Source: an uncultured Spirochaeta sp. (GTDB taxonomy: Bacteria > Spirochaetota > Spirochaetia > DSM-27196 > DSM-8902). Taken from it: 24,000 nt of DNA. The stretch covers positions 7,121 through 31,120 of the forward strand of contig CAZANF010000003.1 of NCBI GenBank assembly GCA_964486425.1, read 5' to 3'. The translations under genes were made by a program, and so were the position numbers. The stretch's first letter is position 1. The number at the start of each line of letters is the position of its first letter. The notes beneath the pieces were generated by a model. That model was not told where the DNA came from. It saw only the letters and a program-made list of their open reading frames with translations, and searched no databases. This document shows positions 3-23,116 of this stretch, one piece after another.

Positions 3-665
3 ATCGAAATAAAGCAGGACAGCAATATCGGCGGTACGAGCGCAAGGTTCACCAAACATGCAAACTATATTCTCATCCAGCATGCAGACGGCAGCTTTGG
101 AAACTACGTCCATTTGCAGCTTGACGGGGCATTGGTAGAGGTCGGCGAAATGGTTGCGGCCGGGCAACGCATCGGACTGAGCGGCAATACCGGACGAAGC
201 AGCGGCCCGCATTTACACTTTGATGTACGCATTCCAACCATGGACGGAGAACTGCAATCAATCCCTGTTTTGTTTATGGATCATCAGGGACGGAGCATGA
301 CTGTAGAAGAGGGCAGATACTATTACGGACTTCACCCGGATAAACCGGGATTTGAGGTTTTTTTTGGTGCTGATCTTACCAATGATGATTTTATCGATCA
401 TAGAGCATCCATTCAGAGCGGAGAACTGGATATGCGAATCGAAGAAATCGACTCAACCTATGTGCTGTTTCTGCAAAATGGAACGACATCACGGCTAAAG
501 GTAGAGACAACCCTGCAGCTTCGCGGCATGAATGCGACTACTCCAACACAGTTGACAACTGTTGTTGATCCGGAAACCGAGGTCTTTTTAAGCATCCTCC
601 GTCCCCGAAATGATGCACGGCAGATTCAGTATGGCTATCAATTCCGTTATCAGGAGGTAGATTAA
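3..665 (+). CDS. M23 family metallopeptidase (LytM/NlpD-like), 5'-truncated at the window edge
   Basis: Frame 3 is open from base 3. The translation HANYILIQHADGSFGNYVHL...GLSGNTGRSSGPHLHFDVR carries the M23 zinc-ligand motifs HxxxD and HxH. Stop codon at 663-665. Confidence 0.85.
   Translation: MEIKQDSNIGGTSARFTKHANYILIQHADGSFGNYVHLQLDGALVEVGEMVAAGQRIGLSGNTGRSSGPHLHFDVRIPTMDGELQSIPVLFMDHQGRSMTVEEGRYYYGLHPDKPGFEVFFGADLTNDDFIDHRASIQSGELDMRIEEIDSTYVLFLQNGTTSRLKVETTLQLRGMNATTPTQLTTVVDPETEVFLSILRPRNDARQIQYGYQFRYQEVD
596..605 (-). repeat. GGGACGGAGG motif copy 1
   Basis: Exact CCTCCGTCCC on the plus strand, inside the M23 peptidase gene and antisense to it. The codons read L-R-P. Confidence 0.95.
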
Positions 666-720
666 TTCCCTGTATAGAGTGCGCATACCGCTGCAGCAGG
701 TCAGTGTCTACATTATTCAG

Positions 721-747
721 GTTTCCGGCGGACCCGAAACTCTTTTT
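721..747 (+). terminator. putative intrinsic terminator after the M23 peptidase gene
   Basis: GTTTCCGG...CCGAAAC forms a stem of 7 bp with one bulge, followed by TCTTTTT. It lies 56 nt after the stop codon. Confidence 0.4.
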
Positions 748-865
748 CGTATAAAGGGGTATCTTTCTGCTGCTGCTTGAACTTTCGATACAGCACACGC
801 TGTACCTGAATCGGTTCCTCTCCTGGGATTGTAAGAATTCGCTGATAGCTTCCATCCCTCTGCAT

Positions 866-2851: not shown

Positions 2852-4395
2852 TGCACTTGAACCCGATACCCAAAAACATTTTCAAATAGCTCTGCCTTAT
2901 CCAGGGCCCCCGCTTTCTCTGCTGATATATCACCGGTATGGGTACAGTGAATAACCACATCATTTTCCCGAATTTCTACCTGTATCCGAGATACCCGTCG
3001 TGAGTGTCCTCGATCTAATCCATCAGCGATCCGCAGAATCGCTGCCAGTTTTTGCACCAGCATTCGCTGCCCGGTCCGTAAAGCTGTATAGGAACTGTGC
3101 GCAGTGCTGGGCATTGATCGTCGATGATATCGCACCACATTGGACACCACCCGGATATCCTGCCGGGACAGTCCGAATATCTCTGAGTTAGACACGAGAT
3201 ACTGACCATGTTTATGGTGACCGCTGCCACGTATGAAATATCCGACATCATGAAGGACAGCCGCAACCTCTAAAAGCAGCCTCGCCTGATCATCCATACC
3301 ATGATCGGATTTCAATTGATCAAACAGCTGCAATGCAAGTATGGCTACATGGATTGAATGCTCCCGATCATAGTGAAACTTTTTTCCCAAACTCTCTGCA
3401 CTCGCCCGCACCTGCATATGAAACTGATCCTCTACCTTAGGACTTTTGCCGGTGATCAGATTCATAAGTACACCTTCGCGTATGCTTACATCAGGAATAA
3501 TCAGATTTTCCGAGGAGGTAGCCTGCAGGAAATATTTACACATCAGCAAAGCCGGAACAAATCCTTCCGCCTCGTTGTATGTAATCCCGAACTTTCGAAC
3601 AATTTTTTCCATGCTATAGCTCTGGGTACGGTCAACAAACTCCTCAAAATCCTTCCGCTCGATAATACTGAATTGATCGCGTCTTTTGGTGTTGGGTATA
3701 AAAGAGGCCGCCATCCGGGCATCTCCCCCGACTGCTACAAAAAATTTAATCCTGATTAGTGGCAGTTCGGTGTCCAGCAGCTCGAGATTGATTCGAAGAT
3801 TCTCCCGGATAAACGTATCTAGATAATTAGATGTTTCTGAGCGTCCACGGATCTGTTCCTCCAGGCGAACAGTGCCCAAACGAAGCGAATGAGCCGATAC
3901 CATTCGTCCGCGCTTTAACAGCATAACCTCTGTGGTGCCGCCCCCGACTTCAAGAATAAGTGAATTAAAACGCGCGAATTGTGGCCGTATCGCTCTGATC
4001 GCATGATTAACTGCAATATAGGTCAGGTAGTTTTCCTCTACACCTTCAATAAGATTTATTTTGAGGCCAGTCTTTGTCCACACTCTATCTATAAAAATAT
4101 CTCGATTCCGGGCTTCCCGAAGCGCGCTGGTAGCAATAACCCGTAAATCAGACTTTCTTAATCCGTATCCTAATGCCAACTCTACAAACCCGGCCAGGAT
4201 ACGGATTGATTGCAGTAAGCTGTCCCTGCTAATCATACCGTGTACAAACACATCACGGCCCAATGTAACAGGACGACTTGCCCGGTCTATGCGATTAATC
4301 GCACCTCCGTCCCTGGAAACCTCGGAGATTAATATGCGAATTGCAGTGGAGCCGATATCAATAACCCCAACCACTCGCGGAGGAGTTTTACTCAT
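2848..4395 (-). CDS. ppx: exopolyphosphatase (Ppx/GppA family) with C-terminal HD domain
   Basis: 515 aa. It has actin-like ATPase motifs (VIDIGSTAIRILI, LEVGGGTTE) and an HD region (LHDVGYF...GHHKHG). It overlaps both neighbours by 4 nt. Confidence 0.9.
   Translation of the reverse strand: MSKTPPRVVGVIDIGSTAIRILISEVSRDGGAINRIDRASRPVTLGRDVFVHGMISRDSLLQSIRILAGFVELALGYGLRKSDLRVIATSALREARNRDIFIDRVWTKTGLKINLIEGVEENYLTYIAVNHAIRAIRPQFARFNSLILEVGGGTTEVMLLKRGRMVSAHSLRLGTVRLEEQIRGRSETSNYLDTFIRENLRINLELLDTELPLIRIKFFVAVGGDARMAASFIPNTKRRDQFSIIERKDFEEFVDRTQSYSMEKIVRKFGITYNEAEGFVPALLMCKYFLQATSSENLIIPDVSIREGVLMNLITGKSPKVEDQFHMQVRASAESLGKKFHYDREHSIHVAILALQLFDQLKSDHGMDDQARLLLEVAAVLHDVGYFIRGSGHHKHGQYLVSNSEIFGLSRQDIRVVSNVVRYHRRSMPSTAHSSYTALRTGQRMLVQKLAAILRIADGLDRGHSRRVSRIQVEIRENDVVIHCTHTGDISAEKAGALDKAELFENVFGYRVQVQ
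4304..4313 (-). repeat. GGGACGGAGG motif copy 3
   Basis: Exact copy in ppx, sense orientation. It encodes R-D-G-G. Confidence 0.95.
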
Positions 4396-5372
4396 TGTTC
4401 TCTTCCCTGTAAGTAATCGTGTACCAGTGCCGAAACGCCCAATGGAACTGCATCATCACCCAGGGAAGCAGAAATAACCTTCACATGTGCAGACAATTCC
4501 GGCATACAGTGAGCTTTCATTGCGGTTATTGCCTTTTCTACATATGTTTTCCCCAGCTTTTGCACAATTCCTCCACCGAGTATTATTAGCTCTGGATTGA
4601 AAATTTGCACACAGGTTGCCATTCCAATTCCCAAATACCGGATACTCCGATCTATCAGATTCATCACCGCCGCTTCCTCAGCATCCAGAGCCTTCTTTAT
4701 TACTGAGCTTCGTATCTTGCTGATATCCGTCCCTGCATGTTTGAATACTGTTGGTGCATATCCTGCGGCTGAGAGCATGACAAGATCCTTTGCCAATGCA
4801 GTCTTACTTGCTAATCCCTCAAACGTACCATTAATTCCTGCAGTAGTTGCCGGTCCATCTGTCTGAAGAATAATATGTCCAATTTCTCCCGCGGCACCTT
4901 TTGCTCCACGATATAATTCTCCATTAAGAATCATTCCACCGCCGATGCCGGTACCTATAAACAGCCCGATTATATGCCGTGCTTTTCGGACAGAACCGAA
5001 GCGAAACTCTCCATACAATCCTGCATTTACATCATTCTCGATTACTACCGGAACCTTAAAGTATTCTGCGACTTTTTTCCTAATATCAAGGTTGCTGAGA
5101 TTCAAATTCGGCAGATGCGCAATATGGCCGGTATGAAGGTCGACCAGTCCAGGGACCGCCAGGCCGACTCCAGCGACCTCCGTCCCCGATATCGAAGCTT
5201 TTTGCAACGAATCCTCGATAGTCTGAATAATCTTGCGCACAAGCGCTTCTTCGCTGGTAATCTGCAGTGTCTTTCGCTTGCTCCTGGCGAGTATAGAGCC
5301 CTCAGGGGATATAACTGCCGAGAGCATTTTTGTTCCCCCCAGATCAAATCCGATAATACATTTATTGCTCAT
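4392..5372 (-). CDS. ROK family sugar kinase (glucokinase-like), first gene of the rok-ppx-ppk operon
   Basis: 326 aa. It has the GFDLGGTKM phosphate-1 motif, the ENDVNAG glucose motif and GEIGH. The usual CxCGxxGCxE zinc motif is absent and is replaced by ATTAGINGTFE. Confidence 0.85.
   Translation of the reverse strand: MSNKCIIGFDLGGTKMLSAVISPEGSILARSKRKTLQITSEEALVRKIIQTIEDSLQKASISGTEVAGVGLAVPGLVDLHTGHIAHLPNLNLSNLDIRKKVAEYFKVPVVIENDVNAGLYGEFRFGSVRKARHIIGLFIGTGIGGGMILNGELYRGAKGAAGEIGHIILQTDGPATTAGINGTFEGLASKTALAKDLVMLSAAGYAPTVFKHAGTDISKIRSSVIKKALDAEEAAVMNLIDRSIRYLGIGMATCVQIFNPELIILGGGIVQKLGKTYVEKAITAMKAHCMPELSAHVKVISASLGDDAVPLGVSALVHDYLQGREQ
5177..5186 (-). repeat. GGGACGGAGG motif copy 4
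   Basis: Exact copy in the ROK kinase gene, sense orientation. It encodes G-T-E-V. Confidence 0.95.
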
Positions 5373-5414
5373 TTCCTCTCCAAAACATAGGAAGATTGTG
5401 CTTACAGTGGCTAT

Positions 5415-6227: not shown

Positions 6228-6248
6228 TCCCGCGTCTACGCTTTCTAC

Positions 6249-6737
6249 ATGACGTGGTTACCATATATATGGGCAATTGCCGGTGTTCTCATGATAGGTT
6301 CTGAAATCTTCTTCTCTGATTTTGTGATGTTCTTTTTTGGTCTCGGGGCTTTATTGACCGGTATCATCACATTGATGTTTCCCGACATAGCGCTGAATAT
6401 TCCTTTCCAATTTGGATTATGGATTATATTATCATCCGTTTCACTGCTGACATTACGAAGATATTTCAGTAAAACCTTCCGCGGTTCCATTTTAAGCGAA
6501 AACCGACAGGATGAGATGATTGGTCGATCGGCTCGTGTAGTTGAGGAAATTTCACCCGATAAGCCAGGTCGCATTTCTTTTGAAGGGACTACATGGAAGG
6601 CAGTTTGTTATGGTGAGCATTTCATGCCGGATGATCGGGTTACAATTATTCAGCAAGAAGGTATCGGCTATGTAGTTACCCAATCCCTGCTTCCGGAGGA
6701 GGAACCTGCTTCCAAAGAAAAGGGCGAAGAAACATAA
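6249..6737 (+). CDS. NfeD family membrane protein
   Basis: 162 aa. It has N-terminal transmembrane helices and a C-terminal OB-like soluble domain (GRSARVVEEISPDKPGRISFEGTTWKAV). It lies directly upstream of SPFH genes, which is the canonical NfeD context. Confidence 0.85.
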   Translation: MTWLPYIWAIAGVLMIGSEIFFSDFVMFFFGLGALLTGIITLMFPDIALNIPFQFGLWIILSSVSLLTLRRYFSKTFRGSILSENRQDEMIGRSARVVEEISPDKPGRISFEGTTWKAVCYGEHFMPDDRVTIIQQEGIGYVVTQSLLPEEEPASKEKGEET

Positions 6738-6764
6738 ACCGTTATTATCCACATAGGAGGAATT

Positions 6765-7754
6765 ATGGAACCGTTTGTTGCGTATAGCATTACCATATTA
6801 CTGTTAGGGCTTTTCTTCATGATCTTTTTTAAACTGCTTCGTATAGTACCTGAACAAGAAGCCTGGATCGTCGAAAACTTCGGAAAATTTCGGGCAACAC
6901 TGGGACCCGGATTTCATTTGGTTATACCTATCGTTCAAAAAATTGCATATAAGCAAATTATCAAGGAAGAGGTTATTGATGTACCTCCTCAAGTATGTAT
7001 CACCAAGGACAATGTCCAGGTTGAGGTAGATGGGTTGTTATATCTGCGTGTGGTGGATCCGGTAAAGGCCGCGTATGGAATAGACAACTATCGATTCGGT
7101 ACCGCGCAGCTCGCACAGACCACGATGCGATCGGAAATTGGAAAGATTTCCCTGGATAATACCTTTTCCGAACGGGACCTCATCAATCGGGCAATTGTAA
7201 AGGCTGTAGATGAGGCAAGTGATCCATGGGGAATCAAAATCACCCGGTATGAAATTCGTGACATCACCCCCACCGAAACAATACTGAAAGCAATGGAGCA
7301 GCAGGTACGAGCGGAGCGGGAAAAGCGAGCCGATATACTCACCAGCGAGGGGGAACGCGACAGCAGGATCAATCTTTCCAGAGGTGAACGTGCCGAAGCC
7401 ATTAATCTTTCAAAAGGAGAACGCCAGAAACGTATCAATCTCTCAGATGGAAAAGCCCGCGCAATTGAAATCATCGCAGAAGCAACTGCCGAGGGACTCA
7501 AAACCGTAGCGTCCGCAATCCGCGTGCCAAAAGGCGAACGCGCCCTCTCAATGCGCATCGCAGATCAATATATTGAACAACTAGGAGAAATACTCAGTAC
7601 AGCCGACACCACCGTGTTGCCACATGATCTCGCTCAAATTCGCGGGATGCTGCAGAGCATTATCCCCTCAGGAGAAAAACTGTTCACTGGAGGGACGGAG
7701 GTGAAGGCAAATGATTCACCCGTTGCCTCCAATACAAAAGGAGATATCGCATGA
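6765..7754 (+). CDS. SPFH domain / band 7 (stomatin/paraslipin-like) protein, paralog 1
   Basis: 329 aa. It has an N-terminal transmembrane helix, an SPFH core (VPPQVCITKDNVQVEVDGLLYLRVVDP...QTTMRSEIGK...WGIKITRYEI) and a C-terminal 11-aa repeat coiled coil. Confidence 0.9.
   Translation: MEPFVAYSITILLLGLFFMIFFKLLRIVPEQEAWIVENFGKFRATLGPGFHLVIPIVQKIAYKQIIKEEVIDVPPQVCITKDNVQVEVDGLLYLRVVDPVKAAYGIDNYRFGTAQLAQTTMRSEIGKISLDNTFSERDLINRAIVKAVDEASDPWGIKITRYEIRDITPTETILKAMEQQVRAEREKRADILTSEGERDSRINLSRGERAEAINLSKGERQKRINLSDGKARAIEIIAEATAEGLKTVASAIRVPKGERALSMRIADQYIEQLGEILSTADTTVLPHDLAQIRGMLQSIIPSGEKLFTGGTEVKANDSPVASNTKGDIA
7350..7448 (+). repeat. three tandem 33-bp (11-aa) repeats inside SPFH paralog 1
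   Basis: The units encode GERDSRINLSR / GERAEAINLSK / GERQKRINLSD. The same 11-aa periodicity is visible, in degenerate form, in paralog 2. Confidence 0.85.
7692..7701 (+). repeat. GGGACGGAGG motif copy 5
   Basis: Exact copy in SPFH paralog 1, sense orientation. It encodes G-T-E-V. Confidence 0.95.
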
Positions 7755-8692
7755 GTGCATATTTACCGTTCCAAATACTAATTGGGGTACTGGGATTAGT
7801 CATCATATACAGTCTTATACGCAGTATTCGTATCATACCCGCTAGAAGTACTATGGTTATCGAACGTTTGGGAAAATACGCACACACACTTCAGGCAGGA
7901 TTTCATATTCTGATTCCTTTTGTAGATCGCGTTAAATATACGCACAGTCTAAAAGAACAAGCTATTGATGTGCCCAGCCAACCGTGTTTTACACAAGACA
8001 ATGTAAAGGTTGAAGTAGATGGAGTCCTGTATTTCAAGGTGAGCGACCCCAAGCGAGCATCCTATGGAATAACCAACTATCGATATGCAACTATTCAGCT
8101 CGCACAAACAACCATGCGATCTATCATCGGAAAACTGGAATTGGATAAAACCTTCGAAGAGCGGGAAAATATTAATGCCTCAATACTTCGTGATATCGAT
8201 CAGGCAACAGATCCCTGGGGCGTTACAATTACCCGATATGAGATCCAGAATATTCGGGTCCCTGATAATATCCTCACTGCCATGGAAATCCAATTGCGGG
8301 CGGAGCGCGAAAAAAGGGCTGTGATCGCTCGAAGTATTGGCGAAATGGAATCACGCATCAACTATTCCAAGGGAATGATGGAAGAATCCATCAATATGTC
8401 AGAAGGTCAAAAAGAACGATATATTAATGAAGCTGAAGGAAAAGCAGCTGAAATACGAACAATTGCCAACGCTACAGCAGTAAGTCTTGAAAAAATCGCT
8501 TCAGCATTGCAGGGGGACGGAGGCGACGAAGCATTAGCCCTTCATTTATCGGAATCCTATATCCAACAGCTCAGAACTCTCGCAAATAAGAAAACCAAAC
8601 TCATTCTACCTCTTGATCTGAGTGATATGGGGTCTCTCATGGACACTGTTAACCAGATGCTTACAAGAACGGCTGGTTCATTCGAAACCTGA
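7751..8692 (+). CDS. SPFH domain / band 7 protein, paralog 2
   Basis: 313 aa and clearly paralogous to the upstream gene (VPSQPCFTQDNVKVEVDGVLYFKVSDP...QTTMRSIIGK...WGVTITRYEI). Its start overlaps the stop of paralog 1 by 4 nt. Confidence 0.9.
   Translation: MSAYLPFQILIGVLGLVIIYSLIRSIRIIPARSTMVIERLGKYAHTLQAGFHILIPFVDRVKYTHSLKEQAIDVPSQPCFTQDNVKVEVDGVLYFKVSDPKRASYGITNYRYATIQLAQTTMRSIIGKLELDKTFEERENINASILRDIDQATDPWGVTITRYEIQNIRVPDNILTAMEIQLRAEREKRAVIARSIGEMESRINYSKGMMEESINMSEGQKERYINEAEGKAAEIRTIANATAVSLEKIASALQGDGGDEALALHLSESYIQQLRTLANKKTKLILPLDLSDMGSLMDTVNQMLTRTAGSFET
8514..8523 (+). repeat. GGGACGGAGG motif copy 6
   Basis: Exact copy in SPFH paralog 2, sense orientation. It encodes G-D-G-G. 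Confidence 0.95.
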
Positions 8693-8713: not shown

Positions 8714-8723
8714 GGGACGGAGG
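8714..8723 (+). repeat. GGGACGGAGG motif copy 7 (left arm of hairpin)
   Basis: Exact copy in the intergenic region, 22 nt after the SPFH2 stop. Confidence 0.95.
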
Positions 8724-8750: not shown

Positions 8751-8760
8751 CCTCCGTCCC
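8751..8760 (-). repeat. GGGACGGAGG motif copy 8 (right arm of hairpin)
   Basis: Exact copy in the intergenic region, inverted relative to copy 7. Confidence 0.95.
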
Positions 8761-8834
8761 TTATTCCTGTACTTATCCTGTAGTTTTCTTCATACATTTA
8801 ATGCCTGGCGATATTATTGAGAGTATATAAGTGT

Positions 8835-9344
8835 ATGAGAAGACCACGAAAAAAAATCTTAAGTGCAGAATATCATGTTATTGCAAAAATCAACTGCGGT
8901 GAATTTCTGATGGCGGAAGATAATATTAAACGCTTGATGCTTAAAATCATCCGCCGGGCCAAACGAAAGTATAAATTTCATTTACGTAATTTTTGCATTA
9001 TGGGTACTCATATCCACCTGATGATAAAACCTCTGGATCAAGAAAATCTATCACGAATCATGCAATGGATTCTCAGTGTATTCGCTATGCAGTATAATTC
9101 CTTGTTACAACGTCACGGACATGTTTGGTACGATCGTTTTAAAAGCTTCATTATAGAGAGCGGCAGACAATGGCTGCATACCTTTATGTATATTGCACAC
9201 AATCCTGTAAAGGCTGGAATAGTAACTGACATTACCGATTATAGATTCAGCGGGATGTGGTTCTACAGGAAAAAACAATACCATATACTTGAACCACCCA
9301 ATAACTCTGTAAAAGAAGCTCTTGCTAATCTTGGATATTCATAA
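8835..9344 (+). CDS. rayT: REP-associated tyrosine transposase (RayT / IS200-like Y1 HUH transposase)
   Basis: It has the HUH motif in GTHIHLMIKP, HVWYDRFKS, and the catalytic Tyr region YIAHNPVKAG. The ORF opens at TTG 8817. ATG 8835 is the more likely start. The gene is visibly more AT-rich than its neighbours. Confidence 0.8.
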   Translation: MRRPRKKILSAEYHVIAKINCGEFLMAEDNIKRLMLKIIRRAKRKYKFHLRNFCIMGTHIHLMIKPLDQENLSRIMQWILSVFAMQYNSLLQRHGHVWYDRFKSFIIESGRQWLHTFMYIAHNPVKAGIVTDITDYRFSGMWFYRKKQYHILEPPNNSVKEALANLGYS

Positions 9345-10342: not shown

Positions 10343-11884
10343 ATGAATATGGAGAATAAAAATCAACATGCTTCACCTGAACAGTTGCAAATGAATGCAC
10401 GGCAAGAACTGGAAGCAATAAAAAGCATAAAAGAAAACGGGCGCATGAAAACCAAGCAGAGGCTTTCAATTCCACAGCAAGAAATGCCGGCGCAAGATCC
10501 AGTACAACGTCGGCACACAATGAGTGAAGTTGCATTAGGCTACTTTGAAGAGCAAGCATTAGTTGAAGCAGAACGTTGTCTACAGTGCAAAAATGCGCCT
10601 TGTGTTATCGGATGCCCGGTAGCTATAGATATACCAGGATTTATCCAAAAGATTACCGAACGAGATTATGATAGCGCATATAAGATTATTTCAAAATCCA
10701 GTTTATTGCCTGCCGTTTGCGGGAGGGTCTGTCCCCAAGAAAACCAATGCCAGGCTCCGTGTACTGTTGGCAAGTCACTCAAAGATACTTTTCAATCAGT
10801 GTCCATTGGACGATTAGAGCGTTTTGTTGCTGACTGGCATGTCGAAAACACAAAAAAAACTGCCTCCGTCCCTCAAGAAAACCCGTTCTCCATTGCTCCA
10901 TCCACCGGTAAAAGAGTCGGCGTTATTGGAAGCGGACCTGCATCCATAACCGCAGCAGCAGACCTCAGACGAGCCGGTCATGAGGTTACCATGTTTGAGG
11001 CTTTTCACAAGCCCGGGGGCGTTATGATGTACGGCATACCGGAATTCCGACTTCCAAAAGATATTGTTGAACGGGAAATTGACAACCTGCGACAAATGGG
11101 AGTGGAAATCAGGACCAATTTCCTTGTCGGACGCACTAGAAAGCTCATGGATCTTTTGCAGGAAGACAATTACGATGCTCTATTCATCGGAAGTGGTGCT
11201 GGTCTCCCCCGCTTTATGCATATTGAGGGAGAAAATCTCGTAGGAGTATTTGCTGCGAACGAATTTCTCACCAGAAGCAACCTTATGAAGGCTTATGATG
11301 CCGATAATGCAGATACTCCCATCCATCGTGCAAAAAAGGTCGCCGTACTTGGGGGCGGCAACGTAGCGATGGATGCCGCGCGTACTGCAATTCGCCTCGG
11401 TGCGGATGAGGTAAACGTAATTTACCGACGTACTCGAAATGAAATGCCCGCTCGCGCAGAGGAAGTTGACCACGCTGAAGAGGAGGGGATAAAATTCCAT
11501 TTTTTAAACAATCCAAGTCGGATTATCGGGGACAACAGTAGTCATGTATGCGGTATTGAGCTCATACAACATGAGCTTGGGGCTCCAGATGATTCCGGCC
11601 GCAGGCGTCCGATTCCAATCCCTGGAAGCGAGTACACTCTTGAGGTCGACACCATCATTGTTTCAATTGGCAATGACTCAAATCCGCTTCTTGTTTCAAG
11701 CACTCCGGATCTGAATACTAATCGCTGGGGGAATATCATTATTGATGAAAAATGTCGCACCTCCGTCCCCGGTGTGTACGCCGGTGGCGACATCGTTCTT
11801 GGAGCTGCTACAGTCATCCTTGCTATGGGTCAGGGTCGTGAAGCTGCAGCGGCTATCAACGATGATCTTACGAGCAAGGGATAA
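10343..11884 (+). CDS. nfnB: NADPH-dependent glutamate synthase small-subunit-like oxidoreductase (NfnB/GltD/SudA type)
   Basis: 513 aa. It has two Fe-S Cys motifs (CLQCKNAPCVIGCP; CGRVCPQENQCQAPC) and two Rossmann motifs (GVIGSGPA, AVLGGGNVAMD). About 35 aa at the N-terminus look like an extension. An alternative start is ATG 10445. Confidence 0.85.
   Translation: MNMENKNQHASPEQLQMNARQELEAIKSIKENGRMKTKQRLSIPQQEMPAQDPVQRRHTMSEVALGYFEEQALVEAERCLQCKNAPCVIGCPVAIDIPGFIQKITERDYDSAYKIISKSSLLPAVCGRVCPQENQCQAPCTVGKSLKDTFQSVSIGRLERFVADWHVENTKKTASVPQENPFSIAPSTGKRVGVIGSGPASITAAADLRRAGHEVTMFEAFHKPGGVMMYGIPEFRLPKDIVEREIDNLRQMGVEIRTNFLVGRTRKLMDLLQEDNYDALFIGSGAGLPRFMHIEGENLVGVFAANEFLTRSNLMKAYDADNADTPIHRAKKVAVLGGGNVAMDAARTAIRLGADEVNVIYRRTRNEMPARAEEVDHAEEEGIKFHFLNNPSRIIGDNSSHVCGIELIQHELGAPDDSGRRRPIPIPGSEYTLEVDTIIVSIGNDSNPLLVSSTPDLNTNRWGNIIIDEKCRTSVPGVYAGGDIVLGAATVILAMGQGREAAAAINDDLTSKG
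10863..10872 (-). repeat. GGGACGGAGG motif copy 9
   Basis: Exact copy in nfnB, antisense to the gene. The codons read A-S-V-P. Confidence 0.95.
11760..11769 (-). repeat. GGGACGGAGG motif copy 10
   Basis: Exact copy in nfnB, antisense to the gene. The codons read T-S-V-P. Confidence 0.95.
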
Positions 11885-11902: not shown

Positions 11903-11950
11903 ACGGAGGTAGTTGTACAGCTGACCTCCGTCCCTTTCATTTCCTTTCGT
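11903..11950 (+). terminator. putative intrinsic terminator of nfnAB incorporating the motif
   Basis: ACGGAGGT (11903-11910) pairs with ACCTCCGT (11924-11931), giving an 8-bp stem and a 13-nt loop. It is followed by the T-rich CCCTTTCATTTCCTTTCGTTTC. Confidence 0.5.
11925..11934 (-). repeat. GGGACGGAGG motif copy 11 (right arm of hairpin)
   Basis: Exact copy in the intergenic region, 41 nt after the nfnB stop. Confidence 0.95.
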
Positions 11951-14441: not shown

Positions 14442-15262
14442 AGATCACCTCCGATAACCTCTGACAATGGTATAGTATCAATAAGGCGAATGCCCTCCAC
14501 ATAAACTGCGGCAAATCGTCGCGGTTCTCCCGGCGATAATCCATCCGTATCCTCAATATAATCGATGGTAATCCCTTCGACTGCCAGCTTCTCAGCAGCA
14601 ATTTTCGGATCCTTGAATTCACGTAAAAATTTTGGAAGGAGTGCTGCCTTCCTCCGTCCCCCGGCAGATAAACGTCGATTTCGTGAACTCATTGCCAGGC
14701 CATCAGCCTCCCGGACAATAGGGCATCCGATTACCTCCGTCCCCAAAACGGCTGGAAGAAAAAAGGCCTCTGCCATTCGCCGGATCAGTACATACTGCTG
14801 ATAATCTTTTTCTCCAAAATAGGCACGATTAGCCTGAGTAAGCAGCAGCAGCTTCAAGACCACGGTCAGAACGCCGGTAAAATGTCCCGGACGGTGCAGA
14901 CCTTCCATTCCCTGGCTGAGTACCACTTCATCTACCCGGTATGCGTATGCATCGGGGTACATCACGTCATCACTTGGGAAAAAAACCGCGTCAATCCCGA
15001 GTTCATCTGCAAGCTGTAGATCATCATCATACGTGCGCGGATAGTTTTTCAGATCCTCAGCATCATTAAACTGGGTAGGATTCACAAAAATACTAATGAC
15101 AGTATAGGCATTTTCTCTTTTACTGCGGCGAATAAGCTCAGCATGGCCATGATGAAGCGCTCCCATAGTTGGAACAAAACCAATACTATCCCCGGCTTGT
15201 CTCACAGCCCTGCAATACTCACTCCAGGCGGCTGTAGCAGTGAATGTCTGTACATGCTTCAA
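14438..15262 (-). CDS. panC: pantoate--beta-alanine ligase
   Basis: 274 aa. It shows [22 protein letters not shown] and MSSRN. It starts at TTG, overlapping the panB stop (TTGA), with a GGAGGT SD 5 nt upstream. Confidence 0.92.
14651..14660 (-). repeat. GGGACGGAGG motif copy 12
   Basis: Exact copy in panC, sense orientation. It encodes G-G-R-R. Confidence 0.95.
14734..14743 (-). repeat. GGGACGGAGG motif copy 13
   Basis: Exact copy in panC, sense orientation. It encodes G-T-E-V. Confidence 0.95.
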
Positions 15263-16167
15263 CGTGTACCTCCGTTTGTTGTGTCGCCGCCGTTTGCTGT
15301 GTCACCTCCGTCCCCAGGGCTATCGTACAAGTGATCTACTTCAACGCTGCTTGCGTCATCGCTTTCCGGAGGTGTGTCGAGATACTGCTCATCGAGGCTG
15401 GGAAAGGATCCGTTTTTTACATCGGCAACAAAGGAATTCACTGCATTCGAAACGATTTTTCGTCCGTCAATATATTCACGGACAAATCGCGGGACTCGTT
15501 GTGAACCAAGGCCGAGTAAATCCTGTAGCACCAGAATCTGACCGTCGGTTTGATCCCCTGCCCCGATTCCGATTACAGGAATAGTCAGTTTTCGACTGAC
15601 CTCCGTCCCCAAAAAAGTCGGCACACATTCCATAACGATGCTGAAACAGCCCAGTTTCTCCAGCTGGACAGCCTGCTGCAGTATTTCATCGGCAGCCGAC
15701 TGATCCCGTCCCTGCACCTTGTATCCGCCAAACACATGCACCGATTGCGGTGTGAGTCCCACATGGCCCATAACAGGGATTCCGCTGTGGATGAGATGCG
15801 GAATCAGTTCCTCATGGCCATGAACCCCCTCGATTTTTACCCCATCAGCGCCGGCAGACATCAGCCTTCCTGCAGATACCACCGCATGCTCCAGACCGTG
15901 TCGGGTAGAGAGAAACGGCATGTCGGCAATAATCGGAAGCTTCGGGGCTCCGGCACGGACCGCACGGACATGAGCTTCTATCATAGCAATATCTGCAGAT
16001 AAGGTAGATGGGTATCCATGTACCACCATTGCCGCACTATCGCCCACGAGAACCGCATCAATATCAGTCTTTTGTAATAATGCCCCGAAACAGGCATCGT
16101 AACAGGTAAGCAGGGTCAGTCTTTTTCCCGACGACTTGCGGGCCGGAAAATCCATTAATTTTGTCAT
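15259..16167 (-). CDS. panB: 3-methyl-2-oxobutanoate hydroxymethyltransferase with an acidic low-complexity C-terminal tail
   Basis: 302 aa. It shows LTCYDA, VLVGDS, ADMPF, GVKIEG and GHVGLTPQS. The SD GAGGAG is 6 nt upstream of the ATG. There are about 38 extra residues after the usual GSFP end. Confidence 0.92.
   Translation of the reverse strand: MTKLMDFPARKSSGKRLTLLTCYDACFGALLQKTDIDAVLVGDSAAMVVHGYPSTLSADIAMIEAHVRAVRAGAPKLPIIADMPFLSTRHGLEHAVVSAGRLMSAGADGVKIEGVHGHEELIPHLIHSGIPVMGHVGLTPQSVHVFGGYKVQGRDQSAADEILQQAVQLEKLGCFSIVMECVPTFLGTEVSRKLTIPVIGIGAGDQTDGQILVLQDLLGLGSQRVPRFVREYIDGRKIVSNAVNSFVADVKNGSFPSLDEQYLDTPPESDDASSVEVDHLYDSPGDGGDTANGGDTTNGGTR
15269..15315 (-). repeat. imperfect 18-bp tandem repeat (about 2.6 units) at the panB 3' end, seeded on the motif
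   Basis: Plus-strand units are CCTCCGTTTGTTGTGTCG, CCGCCGTTTGCTGTGTCA and CCTCCGTCCCC. The first two match at 15 of 18 positions. They encode GGDTANGGDTTNGG. Confidence 0.8.
15305..15314 (-). repeat. GGGACGGAGG motif copy 14
   Basis: Exact copy in the panB C-terminal tail, sense orientation. It encodes G-D-G-G. Confidence 0.95.
15600..15609 (-). repeat. GGGACGGAGG motif copy 15
   Basis: Exact copy in panB, sense orientation. It encodes G-T-E-V. Confidence 0.95.
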
Positions 16168-16349: not shown

Positions 16350-16503
16350 AGCTTACACACCCTATCGTCTCACCGAGTACAATGAGCGGTTCACCTATAC
16401 TGTTCTCATCATCACTGTGTAATGTAGTATAAAAATCATCTTTCGTGTAGGCCCCGGCAACAGGCTGCGAAGGCTGCCATAGTCGACATAAATTGATCCA
16501 GGT

Positions 16504-18138
16504 TCAGTTTTTCCGGTAATGACATCCCATACTGCAGCGATTCTCCCACGCAGCTGTCGTAACAATAACCGCACTACGGACCGCATTGCGCAGACCAATA
16601 AGTGCGTCCGTAAGCAGCGCCGTGCGGTAAAAGCGTTCGATTTCCGTTTCAAGGTGACGCAATTCGCTGAGTGCTCGCTCCAGGCGACGCGAAGTGCGTT
16701 CCAGGCCGACATAATTCCACATAATGTGACGGATGGATGTCATATCTTGATGGATCAATGCCGGATCCGGATCCTCCGTCCCCAGGTTTGTCCACGGCGG
16801 AATCTCACGTTCCGGATAGATTTCCATACCAGCCTTTTCCATATGCTGCAGTATTCGCCGTCCGGCACGCTGGCCCCAGACTATACCTTCCAGCAAGGAG
16901 CTGCTTGCCAATCGATTCGCTCCGTGTACTCCGCTACAGGAGACTTCGCCGACTGCATACAGGTTCTGAATGGTGGTGTGTCCATCCAGGTCAACCCATA
17001 CGCCGCCACAGGAATAATGTGCCGCCGGAACAACCGGAACCGGTTCACGGGTTATATCCACCCCATACTGCAGACATTTGGAAAAAATAGTTGGAAACTC
17101 CTGCCGGATATCATCCGCTGAAATTGTGGAGGCGGCATCCAAAAAGACATTCTCCGCTCCGGACAATAGCATATGCTGGTGGATTCCCCTCGCTACTACA
17201 TCCCGCGGGGCAAGATCGCCCCATTCTTCGTGATATTTTCGCATAAAAGGCCGGCCGGATCCGTCCACCAGGCGGGCGCCGGCTCCTCGAACCGCTTCGG
17301 AAATCAGAAAATTGGGTGCATGGGGATGATGAAAGGTAGTCGGATGAAACTGGATAAACTCGCTATTGATTACCCTGGCTCCAGCCCGGTGCGCCATAGC
17401 AACACCATCACCACGCGCTCCGACCGGATTAGTCGTTCGCAGAAAGAGCTGTCCCAGTCCGCCGGTAGCAAGAACAGTGCTCTGTGCCAGACACCTGATT
17501 ACCTGCCGACTGCTTCTATCAAGCAAATAGGCTCCAACACAGCGGGTCGGCGCATAAATTGCTACCCTGTCGCGCGCATGGTGAGCGGGGGTCAGCAAAT
17601 CCACAGCCGTATGTCCTGATAACAGCCGTATCCGGGGATGCTTATGTAATGCGGCAATCATCGCTTGCTGAATCACGGCACCGGTCGAATCGGCAGCATG
17701 CAATATCCGTGGAGCCGAATGTGCCGCCTCGCGAATCAGCGACAGACTGCCGTCCTTTTCCCGATCAAACGGAACCTGCAGGCGCTCGAGCAATACCTGA
17801 TCAACCACCTCCGTCCCCGACTGAACGAGACTCTGCACTGCTTCCGCCAGACAATGCCCGTGTCCGGCATACAACATGTCCTGCACTGCCTTGTCGGGAG
17901 TATCTTCGCCCTCGCCACCTGCAGGATACATTATTCCGCCCTGAGCATAATTCGTATTGGATTCTGCCGGATCCTCAGCCCTGGTTACTACAATAACCTC
18001 AAGCCCCGAATCAGCAGCCTGCAAAGCGGCTGTTCCGCCCGCAATCCCGCACCCGATTACCAGCACATTAGTTGTTAACAAGTTATCCACAGCATCCTCT
18101 TCGGCTGTACAGACCTCCCGCTGCTCCTGGTTTCTCAT
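16504..18138 (-). CDS. nadB: L-aspartate oxidase
   Basis: 544 aa. It has the FAD motif VLVIGCGIAGGTAAL, plus FHPT and GGLGQLF regions typical of NadB and the succinate dehydrogenase flavoprotein family. It is in an operon with nadA and nadC. Confidence 0.93.
   Translation of the reverse strand: MRNQEQREVCTAEEDAVDNLLTTNVLVIGCGIAGGTAALQAADSGLEVIVVTRAEDPAESNTNYAQGGIMYPAGGEGEDTPDKAVQDMLYAGHGHCLAEAVQSLVQSGTEVVDQVLLERLQVPFDREKDGSLSLIREAAHSAPRILHAADSTGAVIQQAMIAALHKHPRIRLLSGHTAVDLLTPAHHARDRVAIYAPTRCVGAYLLDRSSRQVIRCLAQSTVLATGGLGQLFLRTTNPVGARGDGVAMAHRAGARVINSEFIQFHPTTFHHPHAPNFLISEAVRGAGARLVDGSGRPFMRKYHEEWGDLAPRDVVARGIHQHMLLSGAENVFLDAASTISADDIRQEFPTIFSKCLQYGVDITREPVPVVPAAHYSCGGVWVDLDGHTTIQNLYAVGEVSCSGVHGANRLASSSLLEGIVWGQRAGRRILQHMEKAGMEIYPEREIPPWTNLGTEDPDPALIHQDMTSIRHIMWNYVGLERTSRRLERALSELRHLETEIERFYRTALLTDALIGLRNAVRSAVIVTTAAWENRCSMGCHYRKN
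16773..16782 (-). repeat. GGGACGGAGG motif copy 16
   Basis: Exact copy in nadB, sense orientation. It encodes G-T-E-D. Confidence 0.95.
17808..17817 (-). repeat. GGGACGGAGG motif copy 17
   Basis: Exact copy in nadB, sense orientation. It encodes G-T-E-V. Confidence 0.95.
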
Positions 18139-19184: not shown

Positions 19185-20071
19185 AGGGCGTCTCCTTCTT
19201 GTTCCACCATATCCAAATGAATATCCAACGCCGCAACCGAATGTGTCAAACGCCCGACAGAGATAAAATCTACCCCGGTAGCGGCAATATCACGCACCGT
19301 TTTCAGCGTCACATTGCCCGATGCCTCCAGGAGCAGCCGTCCATCCGATGCTGCAACACAGTCACGCAGCTCAACCAGACTCATGTTGTCCAGCAATACG
19401 CGATCAATTTCCATTTCCATGCCCAGGCCGAGTACCTCATGCAGTCCCTCAACCGAAACAACCTCGATCTCCACCGGCAGTTGTGCCGTATTCGCTCGCT
19501 GCACCCGCGTGACAGCCGCGGTAATCCCACCGGCAGCCGCGATATGATTATCCTTAATCATTATCATATCAAACAATCCGCACCGATGGTTTACCCCGCC
19601 GCCCAGCTGTACCGCGAGTTTATCAAGTACCCGATGTCCCGGAACCGTCTTGCGGGTATCCAGTATCCGCACCCCCGTCCCTTCTACTTCCTGTACATAT
19701 CTTCGGGTTTCCGTCGCTATACCCGACATGCGCTGCAGAAAGGTCAGGGCGGTACGCTCAGCAGTCAGGACAGATTGGGCCGGACCTCGTATAACCGCAA
19801 CCTCCGTCCCCGCCACGACCTCCGTCCCTTCTTCTGCCAGGAGCTCACACTCGATACCGGGGTCAATTTTCGCAAAAACCCGCTGCATTATGGCCAGCCC
19901 TGCGATTATCCCGGCCTGTTTTGCCCTGCAGACAAAACTCATCTGCAGTTCAGGATGAATAATCGCCCGGCTGGTTACATCTCCCGGCCCCACATCCTCG
20001 GTGATTGCCAGATCAATAATGGCTTCTATTAATTCCCGTTCGCGTACATTCACGTTGGTCCTCTTTTGCAT
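19181..20071 (-). CDS. nadC: nicotinate-nucleotide diphosphorylase (carboxylating)
   Basis: 296 aa. It shows EDVGPGDVTS, TERTALTFLQ, ILDTRKT, IMIKDNHI and LLDNM. Confidence 0.93.
   Translation of the reverse strand: MQKRTNVNVRERELIEAIIDLAITEDVGPGDVTSRAIIHPELQMSFVCRAKQAGIIAGLAIMQRVFAKIDPGIECELLAEEGTEVVAGTEVAVIRGPAQSVLTAERTALTFLQRMSGIATETRRYVQEVEGTGVRILDTRKTVPGHRVLDKLAVQLGGGVNHRCGLFDMIMIKDNHIAAAGGITAAVTRVQRANTAQLPVEIEVVSVEGLHEVLGLGMEMEIDRVLLDNMSLVELRDCVAASDGRLLLEASGNVTLKTVRDIAATGVDFISVGRLTHSVAALDIHLDMVEQEGDAL
19801..19810 (-). repeat. GGGACGGAGG motif copy 18
   Basis: Exact copy in nadC, sense orientation. It encodes G-T-E-V. Confidence 0.95.
19819..19828 (-). repeat. GGGACGGAGG motif copy 19
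   Basis: Exact copy in nadC, sense orientation, 18 bp from copy 18. It encodes G-T-E-V. Confidence 0.95.
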
Positions 20072-20087
20072 GACTCAAATATGGTTC

Positions 20088-20117
20088 TGTATACCTTACT
20101 ACACTGCAATCACTCAA
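20088..20117 (-). promoter_or_regulatory. candidate promoter of the nadCAB operon
   Basis: On the minus strand: TTGAGT (20117-20112), an 18-nt spacer, then TATACA (20093-20088), about 17 nt upstream of the nadC ATG. Confidence 0.3.
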
Positions 20118-20209
20118 GTAGGAGGTAAGCCGCAGCAGCAACCCTTCCTGCTTCCAGATACACATCCTCTGCTTGCCCCTGCTTTGACTTTGCCCTACAT
20201 TATTCCAAT

Positions 20210-21322: not shown

Positions 21323-21398
21323 CCCGGGCGCCTCGATCCCTCCGGGCCCGACCGGGCTCTCCGCTCCAACTCCTCATACGCTGCACCCGTGTACAGTA

Positions 21399-21424
21399 AG
21401 CTCATGCCGCAAACGGCATGAGCT
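21399..21424. terminator. perfect 11-bp hairpin between convergent genes; possible bidirectional terminator
   Basis: AGCTCATGCCG-CAAA-CGGCATGAGCT. It sits in the 204-bp GC-rich gap between the M15 peptidase stop and the 529-aa gene stop. Neither side has a clear U-tract. Confidence 0.4.
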
Positions 21425-21526
21425 CACCCAGCCGAGGCAGATCCTGCCGTCCCTTCCGGCTCGCTTCCGCTCCGCCGGTGACGGCAGGCGCGTACTGCGG
21501 GGTTTCCGCTGCGATCCCTGGCGCAG

Positions 21527-23116
21527 TTATTCATTGGAATCGAACACCACCTCCCCGGTCCGGTAGCGCTCAAGGTCAATGCTGTCACGATATCGTTCTA
21601 CATCCTGCAGCTGCCGGCGAAGCTCGGTAAAACGATACTGATAGCCTTCACCGTCGGCTCCCGTGGCAGTAAATCCAGGTTCACCGGCATCCATCGGCAC
21701 CTCCGTCCCCACGTCGGCATGCTGTTCTGCGGCCAGCTCCTCGAACGCGCTCAGCAATGCCGTTTTCTCGCGGGAATTATCCGCACTATGCACAATATCC
21801 TGTGCGTCCACCACCTCCGTCCCCGAAGATACGGTATTCAGCACTTCCTGAAATACCGCTCGACGTGCATTGCGGGATTTGATCGAGGCATTGCGGGCTT
21901 TCAGGCGCCGGCTGCGGATAAGGGGTATCAGGTAGAACAGCAGAGAAAAGAGCAGCGGGACAAAACCCAGCCCGATCAGGACCACCGTAAAGGGAGCGGC
22001 AAGGATTTCCGCGGCCATTGTAACAACTATTGAGTAAAACAGGCCGAAACCTTCCTCAGGCAGCCCGCCCATAAATCCAAATACCGTGAAGTAGCTGCCG
22101 AATCCGAGATTTACTCCGTTCAGGACTGCAATCCATCTGTTCAAGGCCGGGGTATTGGTATTGAACGGAATGGTCGGCATTTCAGGAAGGAGTTTGCCCA
22201 GGCTGCCGCCGCGGCGGTCGGATGGCTGGGCGGTTCGCAGCAGTTCCGGGAAACGGTAGATAAGGCTGCCGGCTTCAGTAACATCGGGTTCACCATCATA
22301 TTCCAGCATCATGCTGTTCATCAGGTCCTGAGCGTCGTCGAGTGACCTTCCGGTAAGCGCGCGCAGCTCTTCAAGGGTCACCACTCCTTTATGGGTCTGC
22401 ACCAGCTGAATAAAGGCCTGTCGTTCCCTGGTTTCCCATTCCTTCGTCGGATCCTCGGATCCGAACACAAACGCAAATACGGATTGATGCAGCGGTGGTC
22501 CGTCACCCTGGCTCCGCATTTTTCGAAAACTCATTTCCTCCACATGCATGCGTCCCTGGGGGGACATGCGATTGCCATAGGCTCCGTACTGATTACGTCG
22601 TCCACTAAACATCCAGAGGAAGATTATCTGCTGGACAAGCCTGGTCAGCATGTAGGTTCCGCCAAGTCCGCCTCTGCCTCGAGATCTGCCTTCCGATTTT
22701 GCACTGGCGGCTGCGGATGCCAGCAGTGCCGCGATCACCAGCGCGATAAACAGAACGAAGTAACCAACCAGCATGAGCATGATCCATACTTTAAACAGCA
22801 CCCTGCCGACCGCTGCTGCACCACGGGCAAAGCGTCGCAGGCCGCGCTGGATACGTGCCTTTGTACTTCGTTCACGGTGGTGCACCCCATGCGGAAAGTA
22901 ATACAGTATTTCCCCGGACTCCGTTACCCGCAGATGCCCGCGGTAATCCTGCACAATTCTCGGGAGCATCTCTTCTATCTGCAGGCGAGGCAGGCTTGTC
23001 GCTCCGATCAGATCGGCAACGGTTGCCTCACTCCCTCTTTTGCGAAAGGCCTGTACCAGCCTGGTCTCTACCTTCCGTTCGTTATAGCTATAGATCGGCT
23101 TGTTCATACATATCAC
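21527..23116 (-). CDS. hypothetical multi-pass membrane protein with three repeated winged-helix-like modules
   Basis: 529-aa ORF with coding-like composition. It has about 5 hydrophobic helices. An internal repeat ends VTESGEILYYFP / VTEAGSLIYRFP / GEGYQYRFTEL. I recognise no family. The track start is GTG 23116. ATG 23107 is more plausible, with GAGGT 12 nt upstream. Confidence 0.7.
   Translation of the reverse strand: MICMNKPIYSYNERKVETRLVQAFRKRGSEATVADLIGATSLPRLQIEEMLPRIVQDYRGHLRVTESGEILYYFPHGVHHRERSTKARIQRGLRRFARGAAAVGRVLFKVWIMLMLVGYFVLFIALVIAALLASAAASAKSEGRSRGRGGLGGTYMLTRLVQQIIFLWMFSGRRNQYGAYGNRMSPQGRMHVEEMSFRKMRSQGDGPPLHQSVFAFVFGSEDPTKEWETRERQAFIQLVQTHKGVVTLEELRALTGRSLDDAQDLMNSMMLEYDGEPDVTEAGSLIYRFPELLRTAQPSDRRGGSLGKLLPEMPTIPFNTNTPALNRWIAVLNGVNLGFGSYFTVFGFMGGLPEEGFGLFYSIVVTMAAEILAAPFTVVLIGLGFVPLLFSLLFYLIPLIRSRRLKARNASIKSRNARRAVFQEVLNTVSSGTEVVDAQDIVHSADNSREKTALLSAFEELAAEQHADVGTEVPMDAGEPGFTATGADGEGYQYRFTELRRQLQDVERYRDSIDLERYRTGEVVFDSNE
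21700..21709 (-). repeat. GGGACGGAGG motif copy 20
   Basis: Exact copy in the 529-aa gene, sense orientation. It encodes G-T-E-V. Confidence 0.95.
21814..21823 (-). repeat. GGGACGGAGG motif copy 21
   Basis: Exact copy in the 529-aa gene, sense orientation. It encodes G-T-E-V. Confidence 0.95.

Follow-up and report, generated by a model that had tools for sequence, protein, structure and literature searches.

A strand-oriented 10-nucleotide word in Spirochaeta coding DNA as a candidate cognate motif of a RayT-like Y1 HUH endonuclease

Proteins of the RAYT family (REP-associated tyrosine transposases) occur in about a quarter of bacterial species, and both their role in the cell and the way in which their repeats multiply are unsettled. 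In the REPtron and REPIN-RAYT systems, said to have been worked out by Nunvar in 2010, Bertels and Rainey in 2011 and Ton-Hoang in 2012, the partner repeat is the repetitive extragenic palindrome (REP), an imperfect palindrome of 20–40 bp that lies outside genes, carries a 5' GTAG (or CGTC) tag and spreads as insertions. A second arrangement, the "TIRtron", consists of a Y1 gene flanked by inverted repeats (terminal inverted repeats, TIRs) that share GGGGWSAS, and its repeat families are moderately abundant (Di Nocera, 2013; PMC3733652). Most TIRtrons fall into TnpA-Y1 subclass 2.1, a subclass in which REP-like hairpins were not detected (Quentin, 2018; PMC6006769). The stretch of DNA considered here, 24,000 nucleotides from an uncultured Spirochaeta sp. 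(contig CAZANF010000003.1; hereafter "the window"), holds one gene for a RayT-like Y1 HUH endonuclease (8835–9344, plus strand; hereafter RayT) together with many copies of the word GGGACGGAGG. We consider it probable, at roughly 0.6, that GGGACGGAGG is the cognate DNA motif of this enzyme, that is, the REP or TIR of a REPtron or TIRtron cut down to a bare 10–11-mer.

The original prediction had listed 21 exact copies of the word with an 18:3 strand split, and a recount agrees with it copy by copy (18 on the minus strand, 3 on the plus strand; binomial p = 0.0015 on recomputation). Across 100 dinucleotide-preserving shuffles of the window the word appears 0.02 times on average and at most once, an enrichment of ~1000-fold for the exact 10-nt core. 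The excess is confined to the exact class: next to 21 exact copies (0.02 expected) there are 3 one-mismatch copies (1.3 expected) and 18 two-mismatch copies (~17.7 expected), so that near-misses stand at chance level, which suggests that only the exact word counts. The partial copies pointed out earlier are indeed one- or two-mismatch copies, namely GGGACGGAGC at 287–296 (plus strand, one mismatch), which is the dominant variant of another RayT subclade, GGGACGGGGG at 19672–19681, and two-mismatch copies at 4724–4733 and 23404–23413. When the 21 copies are aligned in their G-rich orientation (the G-form), the 5' neighbor is G in 15 and A in 6, a purine at −1 throughout, and the 3' neighbor is T in 15 of 21. 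Read on the complementary C-form, the following C first counted in 15 of 21 copies stands, and the preceding A is found in 15 rather than 14, a trivial slip. The alignment shows no flank conservation past −1 and +1, that is, nothing past 12 nt, and GGGACGGAGG is therefore a bare word rather than part of a longer repeat. Eighteen copies are genic, spread over 11 genes, and three (8714, 8751 and 11925) are intergenic. The coding tally given before is reproduced exactly: of the 15 sense readings, 10 are GTE(V/D), 4 are DGG and 1 is GRR, and of the 3 antisense readings, 2 are SVP and 1 is LRP. Copies occupy three sense and two antisense frames, and others lie between genes.

The RayT gene, flagged at the outset as a lead, has turned out to be the key to the motif, in that RayT homologs flanked by the same 10-mer occur in at least seven phyla. 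The window holds a single copy, which would encode a protein of 169 amino acids (identical to P0121) with T-H-I-H as its HUH motif and Y-I-A-H-N-P around the catalytic tyrosine; residues H59, H61 and Y119 are invariant in an alignment of 39 homologs, as are H-I-H and Y-I-x-x-N-P. Pfam detects Y1_Tnp (E = 6e-11) and no other domain. Among NCBIfam models REP_Tyr_transpos fits best, scoring 76.1 bits where the cut-off is 80, while the IS200 model reaches only 24 bits, and the sole relative in the PDB is TnpA-REP of E. coli (4ER8, E = 2.5e-6). No relatives of RayT were found in viral contigs, and those on plasmids reach at most 37% identity, the copy on a Sporomusa plasmid being without the motif.

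An inverted pair of motif copies (8714–8723 on the plus strand, 8751–8760 on the minus strand) lies 84–121 nt upstream of RayT, after the end of a band-7 gene. Between this pair and the RayT start lies a promoter-like site, TTCATA-17-TATTAT (8789–8817, plus strand; a consensus match only). RNA folding predicts a hairpin for the pair, with 15-nt arms (−23.4 kcal/mol, z = −4.1). The remaining intergenic copy, at 11925–11934 on the minus strand, is accompanied by a partial inverted copy, ACGGAGGT at 11903–11910, and the two would form a hairpin downstream of gltD (11903–11934; −15.5 kcal/mol, z = −2.5 by RNA fold); copies counted in hairpins come to 2 of 21 in the window, and no Rfam family matches in the window. 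Related loci share a common order of motif, then promoter-like TTGAAGCA...TATACT, then RayT. The element TTGAAGCA...(T)ATACT stands ~30–45 nt upstream of the RayT start codon in many of loci L130–L209 and looks like a shared promoter or leader; the upstream motif may double as an operator.

The link between gene and word was approached from both sides. A motif-first search, which required two copies within 30 nt, took one genome per species and was diluted by chance matches and microsatellites, gave 119 loci among the matches listed, of which 8 hold a RayT homolog (tblastn with the window protein). These eight belong to Spirochaetales, Oceanispirochaeta, a gammaproteobacterium, Peregrinibacteria, Peptococcaceae, Myxococcales, Eggerthellaceae and Acidobacteriia, and in seven of them the gene stands between G-form copies on its left and inverted copies on its right. 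Among the matches listed, the same 10–11-mer, dense and with lineage-specific flanks, is seen in very different bacteria: the motif sits in perfect hairpins in a Pseudohongiella metagenome-assembled genome (MAG), in the loop of differing stems in Lachnospiraceae and Eggerthellaceae MAGs, and as dispersed copies in Oceanispirochaeta, Peregrinibacteria, Metabacillus and others. Three matches from unrelated MAGs (L035, L045 and L049) are microsatellite-like arrays of (GGGACGGA)n or (GGGA)n, composition matches rather than the RayT motif. A Spirochaetaceae MAG (L097, 4641–4704) has four tandem 18-nt units, GGGACGGAGGTCGCCCTG, which in the GTE frame would give (GTEVAL)n.

The reverse test picked loci by RayT similarity alone (alignment A1). 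The exact 10-mer is present in 58 of 80 metagenome RayT loci, and at more than 400 nt from RayT there are 221 copies in 558 kb, where ~1 would be expected. The top 10-mer of long RayT loci is the motif or a one-base variant of it, at 0.5–1.2 copies per kb. Upstream of the gene, GGGAC[AG]GAG[GC] occurs on the RayT strand within 330 nt in 66 of 83 loci, a tally that includes some near-duplicate metagenome loci, and in 55 it lies 53–170 nt from the start codon.

Word and enzyme also change together. In a neighbor-joining tree of RayT, there are subclades in which GGGACGGAGC or GGGACAGA[GC]C, both upstream of the gene and genome-wide, replaces GGGACGGAGG. In five loci (L169, L171, L176, L147 and L165) copies are found only beside RayT, with none in the 8–19 kb flank, and the module therefore exists without expansion. 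The RayT of the cultured bacterium Acetoanaerobium noterae, 32% identical to ours, is flanked by REP-like units with the core TAGGGACGGTT; these intergenic units, AATCAnTAGGGACGGTTCTTTTTGA, lie on the plus strand upstream and on the minus strand downstream, and share the core GGGACGG. Two loci on one 223-kb contig (L144 and L177, Ga0209164_1000148) have RayTs of different subclades, one of the GGGACGGAGG type and one of the GGGACAGAGC type, to which the classical RAYTs, with a REP family of its own for each enzyme, offer a parallel. P0146 and P0157 likewise lie on one 288-kb contig, and single genomes can hold two diverged RayT paralogs. What these loci show, at the level of sequence comparison, is that RayT and the motif are associated and co-vary.

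Inside genes, the pressure acts on the DNA and not on the protein, as the original prediction had proposed. All ten GTE tripeptides in window genes are spelled GGG-ACG-GAG-G, the exact motif, where codon usage predicts 1.5% (p ~7e-19 for all ten), and all four DGG tripeptides are spelled with the motif; the antisense-compatible peptides are motif-coded in 2 of 3 cases for SVP and in the single case for LRP. The GTE tripeptide is itself 4.7-fold enriched relative to amino-acid composition (10 against 2.1 expected, p = 7e-5). Other dense loci have 30 of 36 GTE tripeptides motif-coded, and Spirochaeta africana has 0 of 4. An artefact of codon or peptide usage is ruled out by the 10 of 10 GTE tripeptides that are motif-coded against the 1.5% expected.

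Ortholog alignments, which had been suggested as a way to tell insertion from substitution, speak for the latter. Protein and codon alignments with three relatives are ungapped across the motif at every alignable site, and the motif differs from the orthologous sequence at 1–7 bases (mean 3.6); the genic copies therefore come from substitution, and an origin as 12-nt in-frame insertions is ruled out. Only the copies in the C-terminal tails of the first band-7 gene and of panB are without an aligned counterpart and fall outside this comparison. The orthologous residues are either GTEI, DGG, TSLP and the like in another spelling, or unrelated residues in variable stretches.

The individual sites, all on the minus strand unless noted, bear out this range. 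Among the GTE readings, all in sense, the copy in panC at 14734–14743 (GTEV) faces GTEI in 3 of 3 orthologs (GGA/GGC ACx GAA, 4 base differences), that in panB at 15600–15609 (GTEV) faces GTEI or SSAI, and those in nadB face GTDA, GTEA or AQDI at 16773–16782 (GTED) and GQVE, GTAA or GNPI at 17808–17817 (GTEV). Two copies 18 nt apart in nadC (19801–19828) read EGTEVVAGTEV, and the orthologs have DGTEVSAGTDV, EGAEVVAGTEV and DGSQVMTGTEI. A gene for a 529-aa hypothetical protein has GTEV twice, at 21700–21709 (ortholog EAEE) and at 21814–21823 (ortholog GTAE, 1 base difference); the ROK kinase gene has it at 5177–5186, opposite VPQI at 6 base differences, and the first band-7 gene at 7692–7701 on the plus strand, in its variable C-terminal tail. 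The DGG frame is used in sense in ppk (2301–2310, GDGG), in ppx (4304–4313, RDGG; the ortholog has SNGG and, two residues downstream, a gap of one residue), in the second band-7 gene (8514–8523, plus strand, GDGG; orthologs EGG or DGG, 2–3 base differences) and in panB (15305–15314, GDGG, within a C-terminal extension that has no ortholog counterpart), and the GRR frame in panC (14651–14660, GGRR). Antisense copies lie in an open reading frame (ORF) for an M23 peptidase (596–605, LRP) and twice in the gltD-like gene, at 10863–10872 (SVP, in a variable segment) and 11760–11769 (TSVP; orthologs TSLP or TSVD, 1–4 base differences).

Once present, the sites persist, as can be followed in syntenic metagenome loci of graded divergence. 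At ~72% nucleotide identity, where 4–5% of background 10-mers are unchanged, motif sites are kept within the motif family in 9 of 9, 8 of 10, 9 of 11 and 11 of 13 cases (p from 5e-10 to 3e-14); at 87–89% identity, with 31–40% of background 10-mers unchanged, 17 of 19 and 27 of 29 sites are kept (p = 2e-7 and 2e-9). Where relatives differ, they have nearly always exchanged one family member for another, by A/G at position 6 and G/C at position 10. Which variant predominates at a given set of orthologous sites depends on the lineage: of 6 shared sites, 5 read GGGACAGAGC in L173 and other variants in its relatives, and L199 and L203 have mostly GGGACGGAGG. Two events in L206 are of another kind. 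Relative to L193, a 33-nt in-frame insertion (14945–14977) starts with a new copy and ends directly at an existing one; this is the sole clean insertion seen and is compatible with a Y1-type insertion beside a target. Near 17798, a motif present in four relatives (L193, L208, L199 and L203) is replaced at 7 of 10 positions, within a patch of ~35 nt whose divergence greatly exceeds that of the background (89% identity) and whose length is unchanged. A claim of transposition from the indels between L199 and L203 or between L193 and L206 was dropped, as most of these are messy variable regions and one clean event is too little.

The original prediction had left two explanations of the 18:3 polarity confounded, the replication strand and the sense of the transcript. 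In the window itself, minus-strand genes have 13 sense and 0 antisense copies and plus-strand genes 2 sense and 3 antisense (Fisher p = 0.012). A wider comparison covers 21 independent related loci, with near-duplicates removed, the motif masked for the skew calculation and the window excluded, in which genes were called by a longest-ORF approximation; ~78% of copies are genic there, as are 18 of 21 in the window. The locally G-rich strand of these loci has 223 copies against 123 for its complement (p = 8e-8), with 18 loci in agreement on the direction and 2 not, and motif orientation correlates with local GC skew (Spearman 0.64–0.74). Intergenic copies are skewed too (50:27). Sense copies outnumber antisense ones 108 to 42 in genes on the G-rich strand, and genes on the C-rich strand are near-even, with 65 antisense and 54 sense. 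Two components are present, a DNA-strand bias and a bias of sense or peptide; from the intergenic skew and the split in C-rich-strand genes it follows that transcript sense alone is insufficient for the polarity. The confounding is in this way resolved in part, with a DNA-strand bias apparent and a transcript-sense or peptide component there as well. General knowledge of GC skew and of IS608-type enzymes would make the G-rich strand the leading-strand sequence and hence the lagging-strand template.

If GGGACGGAGG is the motif of RayT, the ancestral module would have comprised one or more motif copies, then a promoter, then RayT, an arrangement that occurs in many phyla. In some lineages, the Spirochaeta-like source genome among them, the motif would have expanded to ~1 copy per kb chromosome-wide, mostly within genes. 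New genic copies would arise mainly by ordinary base substitution at compatible peptides (GTE, DGG and GRR in sense, SVP and LRP in antisense): near-cognate sites would drift into the exact state and then stay held, and exact copies, once formed, would be kept very long and be retuned jointly to the variant that the lineage prefers. The G-rich strand, which the copies prefer, would by analogy with IS608-type Y1 enzymes be the one exposed as lagging-strand template, and RayT may bind or cleave the single-stranded G-form. This interaction, through a host benefit or through biased fixation, would favor exact copies over near-misses, and sites would be held either by host benefit or by biased repair or recombination. 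The most far-reaching version of the proposal, in which a domesticated Y1 HUH endonuclease maintains a genome-wide, strand-oriented 10-nt word in coding DNA through a process that fixes point substitutions rather than insertions, we put forward tentatively, as possible with the odds somewhat against it. If true, it would mean RayT-dependent "writing" and proofreading of a motif at ~1 site per kb, a new molecular drive or chromosome signal with a possible tie to lagging-strand processing, and a long-missing cellular function for RAYT proteins.

Several points weigh against assigning the motif to RayT in this way. The link between them is correlative, the RayT score falls slightly under the NCBIfam cut-off, and the window gene is flanked by the motif upstream only, with no downstream copy. 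The density of the source genome is read from a 24-kb window. GC skew stands in only indirectly for the direction of replication and is bound up with that of the genes, and the copies in C-rich-strand genes are divided almost evenly. No copy of the motif is present in the syntenic region of S. africana (21.7 kb) or in that of a metagenome relative, MAG L007 (13.7 kb), and S. dissipatitropha has one in 21.6 kb, counts that concern the syntenic region only and do not extend to RayT status genome-wide. As to mechanism, a nuclease that cuts its sites would be expected to lose them through repair from uncut copies, the "hot-spot paradox", and persistence therefore needs an extra benefit or protection; to our knowledge, no Y1 chemistry makes a site by point substitution.

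The alternatives differ in what they make of RayT. It could be a passenger, an IS200-like element that inserts beside a motif that the host has enriched for an unrelated reason. IS608-type elements always lie 3' of their target sequence, a habit that would account for the fairly fixed distance of the motif upstream of RayT and for its position upstream only in the window; a passenger would hardly explain modules in genomes without other copies in the 8–19 kb flank, the same core beside RayT in at least seven phyla, or subclades of RayT that co-vary with motif variants. RayT is moreover low-copy and diverged rather than present as identical IS copies, with L144 and L177 of different subclades on one contig, and the viral contigs yielded no relative, so that we think a passenger unlikely. 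A host signal selected for replication orientation, Chi-like (for RecBCD or AddAB) or similar to the FtsK-orienting polar sequences (KOPS) or SpoIIIE recognition sequences (SRS), is in our judgment distinctly unlikely, even though the motif is G-rich, leans ~2:1 toward the G-rich strand and 18:3 in the window, and is conserved in position over the long term. Known Chi and KOPS motifs are 5–8 nt long and only few-fold enriched, whereas this 10-mer is ~1000-fold enriched and saturates its compatible codons; S. africana and MAG L007 both have such machinery and lack the motif in their syntenic regions, and identity across phyla follows RayT, not taxonomy. The likeness to Chi and KOPS drawn earlier accordingly holds for the strand skew only and fails on the rest, the 10-nt core and the degree of enrichment.

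Much of what happens inside the genes would be expected of a DNA uptake sequence (DUS) or uptake signal sequence (USS) spread by molecular drive, through biased uptake and recombination in natural transformation: ~1 copy per kb, an exact core whose near-misses are not in excess, hairpin-forming pairs at the ends of genes, an enriched GTE tripeptide, and genic copies formed by substitution at peptide positions that can accommodate the motif and are often variable. Neither DUS nor USS shows strand skew, and both are lineage-specific, whereas here the same 10-mer lies beside a Y1 gene in unrelated phyla and is skewed, and a Pfam and annotation scan of the window found no competence gene; on this balance an uptake sequence seems very unlikely. 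The features listed in favor of this alternative match the pattern described for uptake sequences (Findlay and Redfield, 2009; PMC2817400). A cytoplasmic RayT acting on incoming single strands could itself give a DUS-like drive, which would merge this alternative with the assignment of the motif to RayT. Action at the level of RNA or protein, as an internal Shine-Dalgarno-like pause site or a favored GTEV or DGG peptide, we regard as highly improbable. The G-form does contain GGAGGT, 15 of 18 genic window copies are in sense, and G-rich-strand genes of the related loci have the 108:42 sense bias; against this, the word is read in three sense and two antisense frames and also lies between genes, its antisense-compatible peptides are saturated as well (SVP 2 of 3, LRP 1 of 1), genes on the C-rich strand have it in antisense as often as in sense (65:54), the intergenic copies are skewed too, and no Rfam family matches.

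The genes of the window include ppk, ppx, a ROK kinase gene, a nadR-like gene, two band-7 genes, the Y1 transposase-like gene, gltD-like genes, a response-regulator/kinase gene, panD, coaX, panC, panB, nadB, nadA, nadC and a peptidase gene. A protein of "MAG: Spirochaeta sp." (GCA_048626355.1) matches NadB at 100% identity, and those of S. africana and S. dissipatitropha match it at 68–70%. RayT fills a slot (8817–9344) between a band-7 gene and the gltD-like genes; in S. africana (L004, 18812–19963) an unrelated gene for a 383-aa hypothetical protein stands in this slot, and S. dissipatitropha (L002) is without the entire gltD/regulator block. The 3' ends of panB (15259–15330) and of the first band-7 gene (7680–7754) are C-terminal extensions that the orthologs do not have, with one motif copy each; that of panB consists of a low-complexity GDGGDTANGGDTTNGG repeat. 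Elsewhere, two long ORFs on opposite strands overlap each other. That on the minus strand (21527–23116) has an S. africana ortholog; that on the plus strand (22391–23743) probably starts near 23150, because its GNAT domain is limited to the last ~130 residues (318–399 of 450). A second word, ATCTGCAG, occurs 12 times where 1.15 copies would be expected (at 1393, 5260, 14128, 15870, 15991, 15993, 18142, 18822, 19941, 20389, 22977 and 23987), with 10 copies on the plus strand, opposite to the main motif; 8-mers containing CTGCAG are also among the top words of the S. dissipatitropha locus and of L129.

What sets the present case apart is that a recognition word has here been separated from the hairpin or mobile unit: it is 10 nt long, genic, born by substitution, conserved in position, and shifts with the enzyme subclade. 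There appears to be a link between an enzyme of single-strand DNA and a lasting bias in fixation or benefit to the host, with codon use and even peptide content measurably reshaped (GTE 4.7-fold). In practical terms, the recognition sequence is clean and easily synthesized, variants with A at position 6 or C at position 10 occur naturally and can serve work on specificity, and a cultured relative, A. noterae, has the conventional REP-like form. Annotation calls for some care as well, since such a k-mer can look like a DUS, Chi or KOPS signal.

Compared with TIRtrons, the locus shares a RAYT-like Y1 gene flanked by an inverted G-rich motif beginning GGGGAC, together with repeat families that are moderately abundant in some genomes and a spread over many phyla, Acidobacteria included. 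The variant GGGGACAG fits GGGGWSAS, and the association of gene and motif therefore belongs to a known kind; GGGGACGG of the window differs at one position. Unlike TIRtron repeats, the motif here is a bare 10–11-mer without a longer inverted repeat, at ~1 copy per kb, with ~78–86% of copies genic and born by substitution. TnpA-Y1 subclass 2.1 proteins have ~238 aa and a C-terminal helix-turn-helix, whereas the window RayT has 169 aa and, by Pfam, Y1_Tnp only. With REPtrons and REPIN-RAYT systems the locus shares a low-copy Y1 HUH gene flanked by its cognate repeat, co-evolution of enzyme and repeat, a repeat population whose size varies by lineage, and positions that persist long. The REP analogy drawn in the original prediction holds in this association with a RayT gene and not in anatomy, for the window motif is non-palindromic, lacks the GTAG tag, is mostly intragenic and entered genes without indels; elsewhere, in other phyla, the core forms part of hairpins or REP-like units peculiar to each lineage. 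CGTC-tagged REPs were considered, as the complement of the motif contains CGTC, and ruled out, since those have 8–9-bp AT-footed stems and no associated transposase. IS200/IS605 elements (IS608, ISDra2) have an enzyme of the same superfamily, and their action on the lagging-strand template gives a strand bias. Such a bias would fit the skew observed, and the 33-nt insertion of L206 beside an existing copy is a further likeness; in contrast to those elements there are no multi-copy identical units, no tnpB and no subterminal hairpin ends, and the genic copies are not insertions.

Inside genes the closest likenesses are others. DUS and USS, too, have an exact core of 9–12 nt at ~1 copy per kb, arise by substitution at compatible tripeptides, slightly reshape the proteome and form inverted pairs at gene ends. 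The earlier comparison with them stands for this behavior and falls on membership, the motif being skewed (223:123), common to at least seven phyla together with a Y1 gene, and without a link seen to a pilus or competence receptor. HIP1 of cyanobacteria (GCGATCGC) is a palindromic 8-mer linked to methyltransferases and has no agreed mechanism; it resembles the window motif as a short word highly iterated in genes through codon choice, and differs from it in that ours is an asymmetric 10-mer linked to a Y1 gene. A literature search on the motif string and on intragenic RAYT repeats found nothing relevant, and no description was found of a flankless 10-mer repeat, its density of ~1 per kb or its mainly intragenic location, nor of substitution origin with codon saturation, deep positional conservation, concerted variant shifts or strand skew. 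We would describe the whole as a system related to REP/TIR-RAYT that spreads like DUS or USS: it resembles DUS/USS and HIP1 inside genes and REP/RAYT in its partner protein, and it fails defining features of each.

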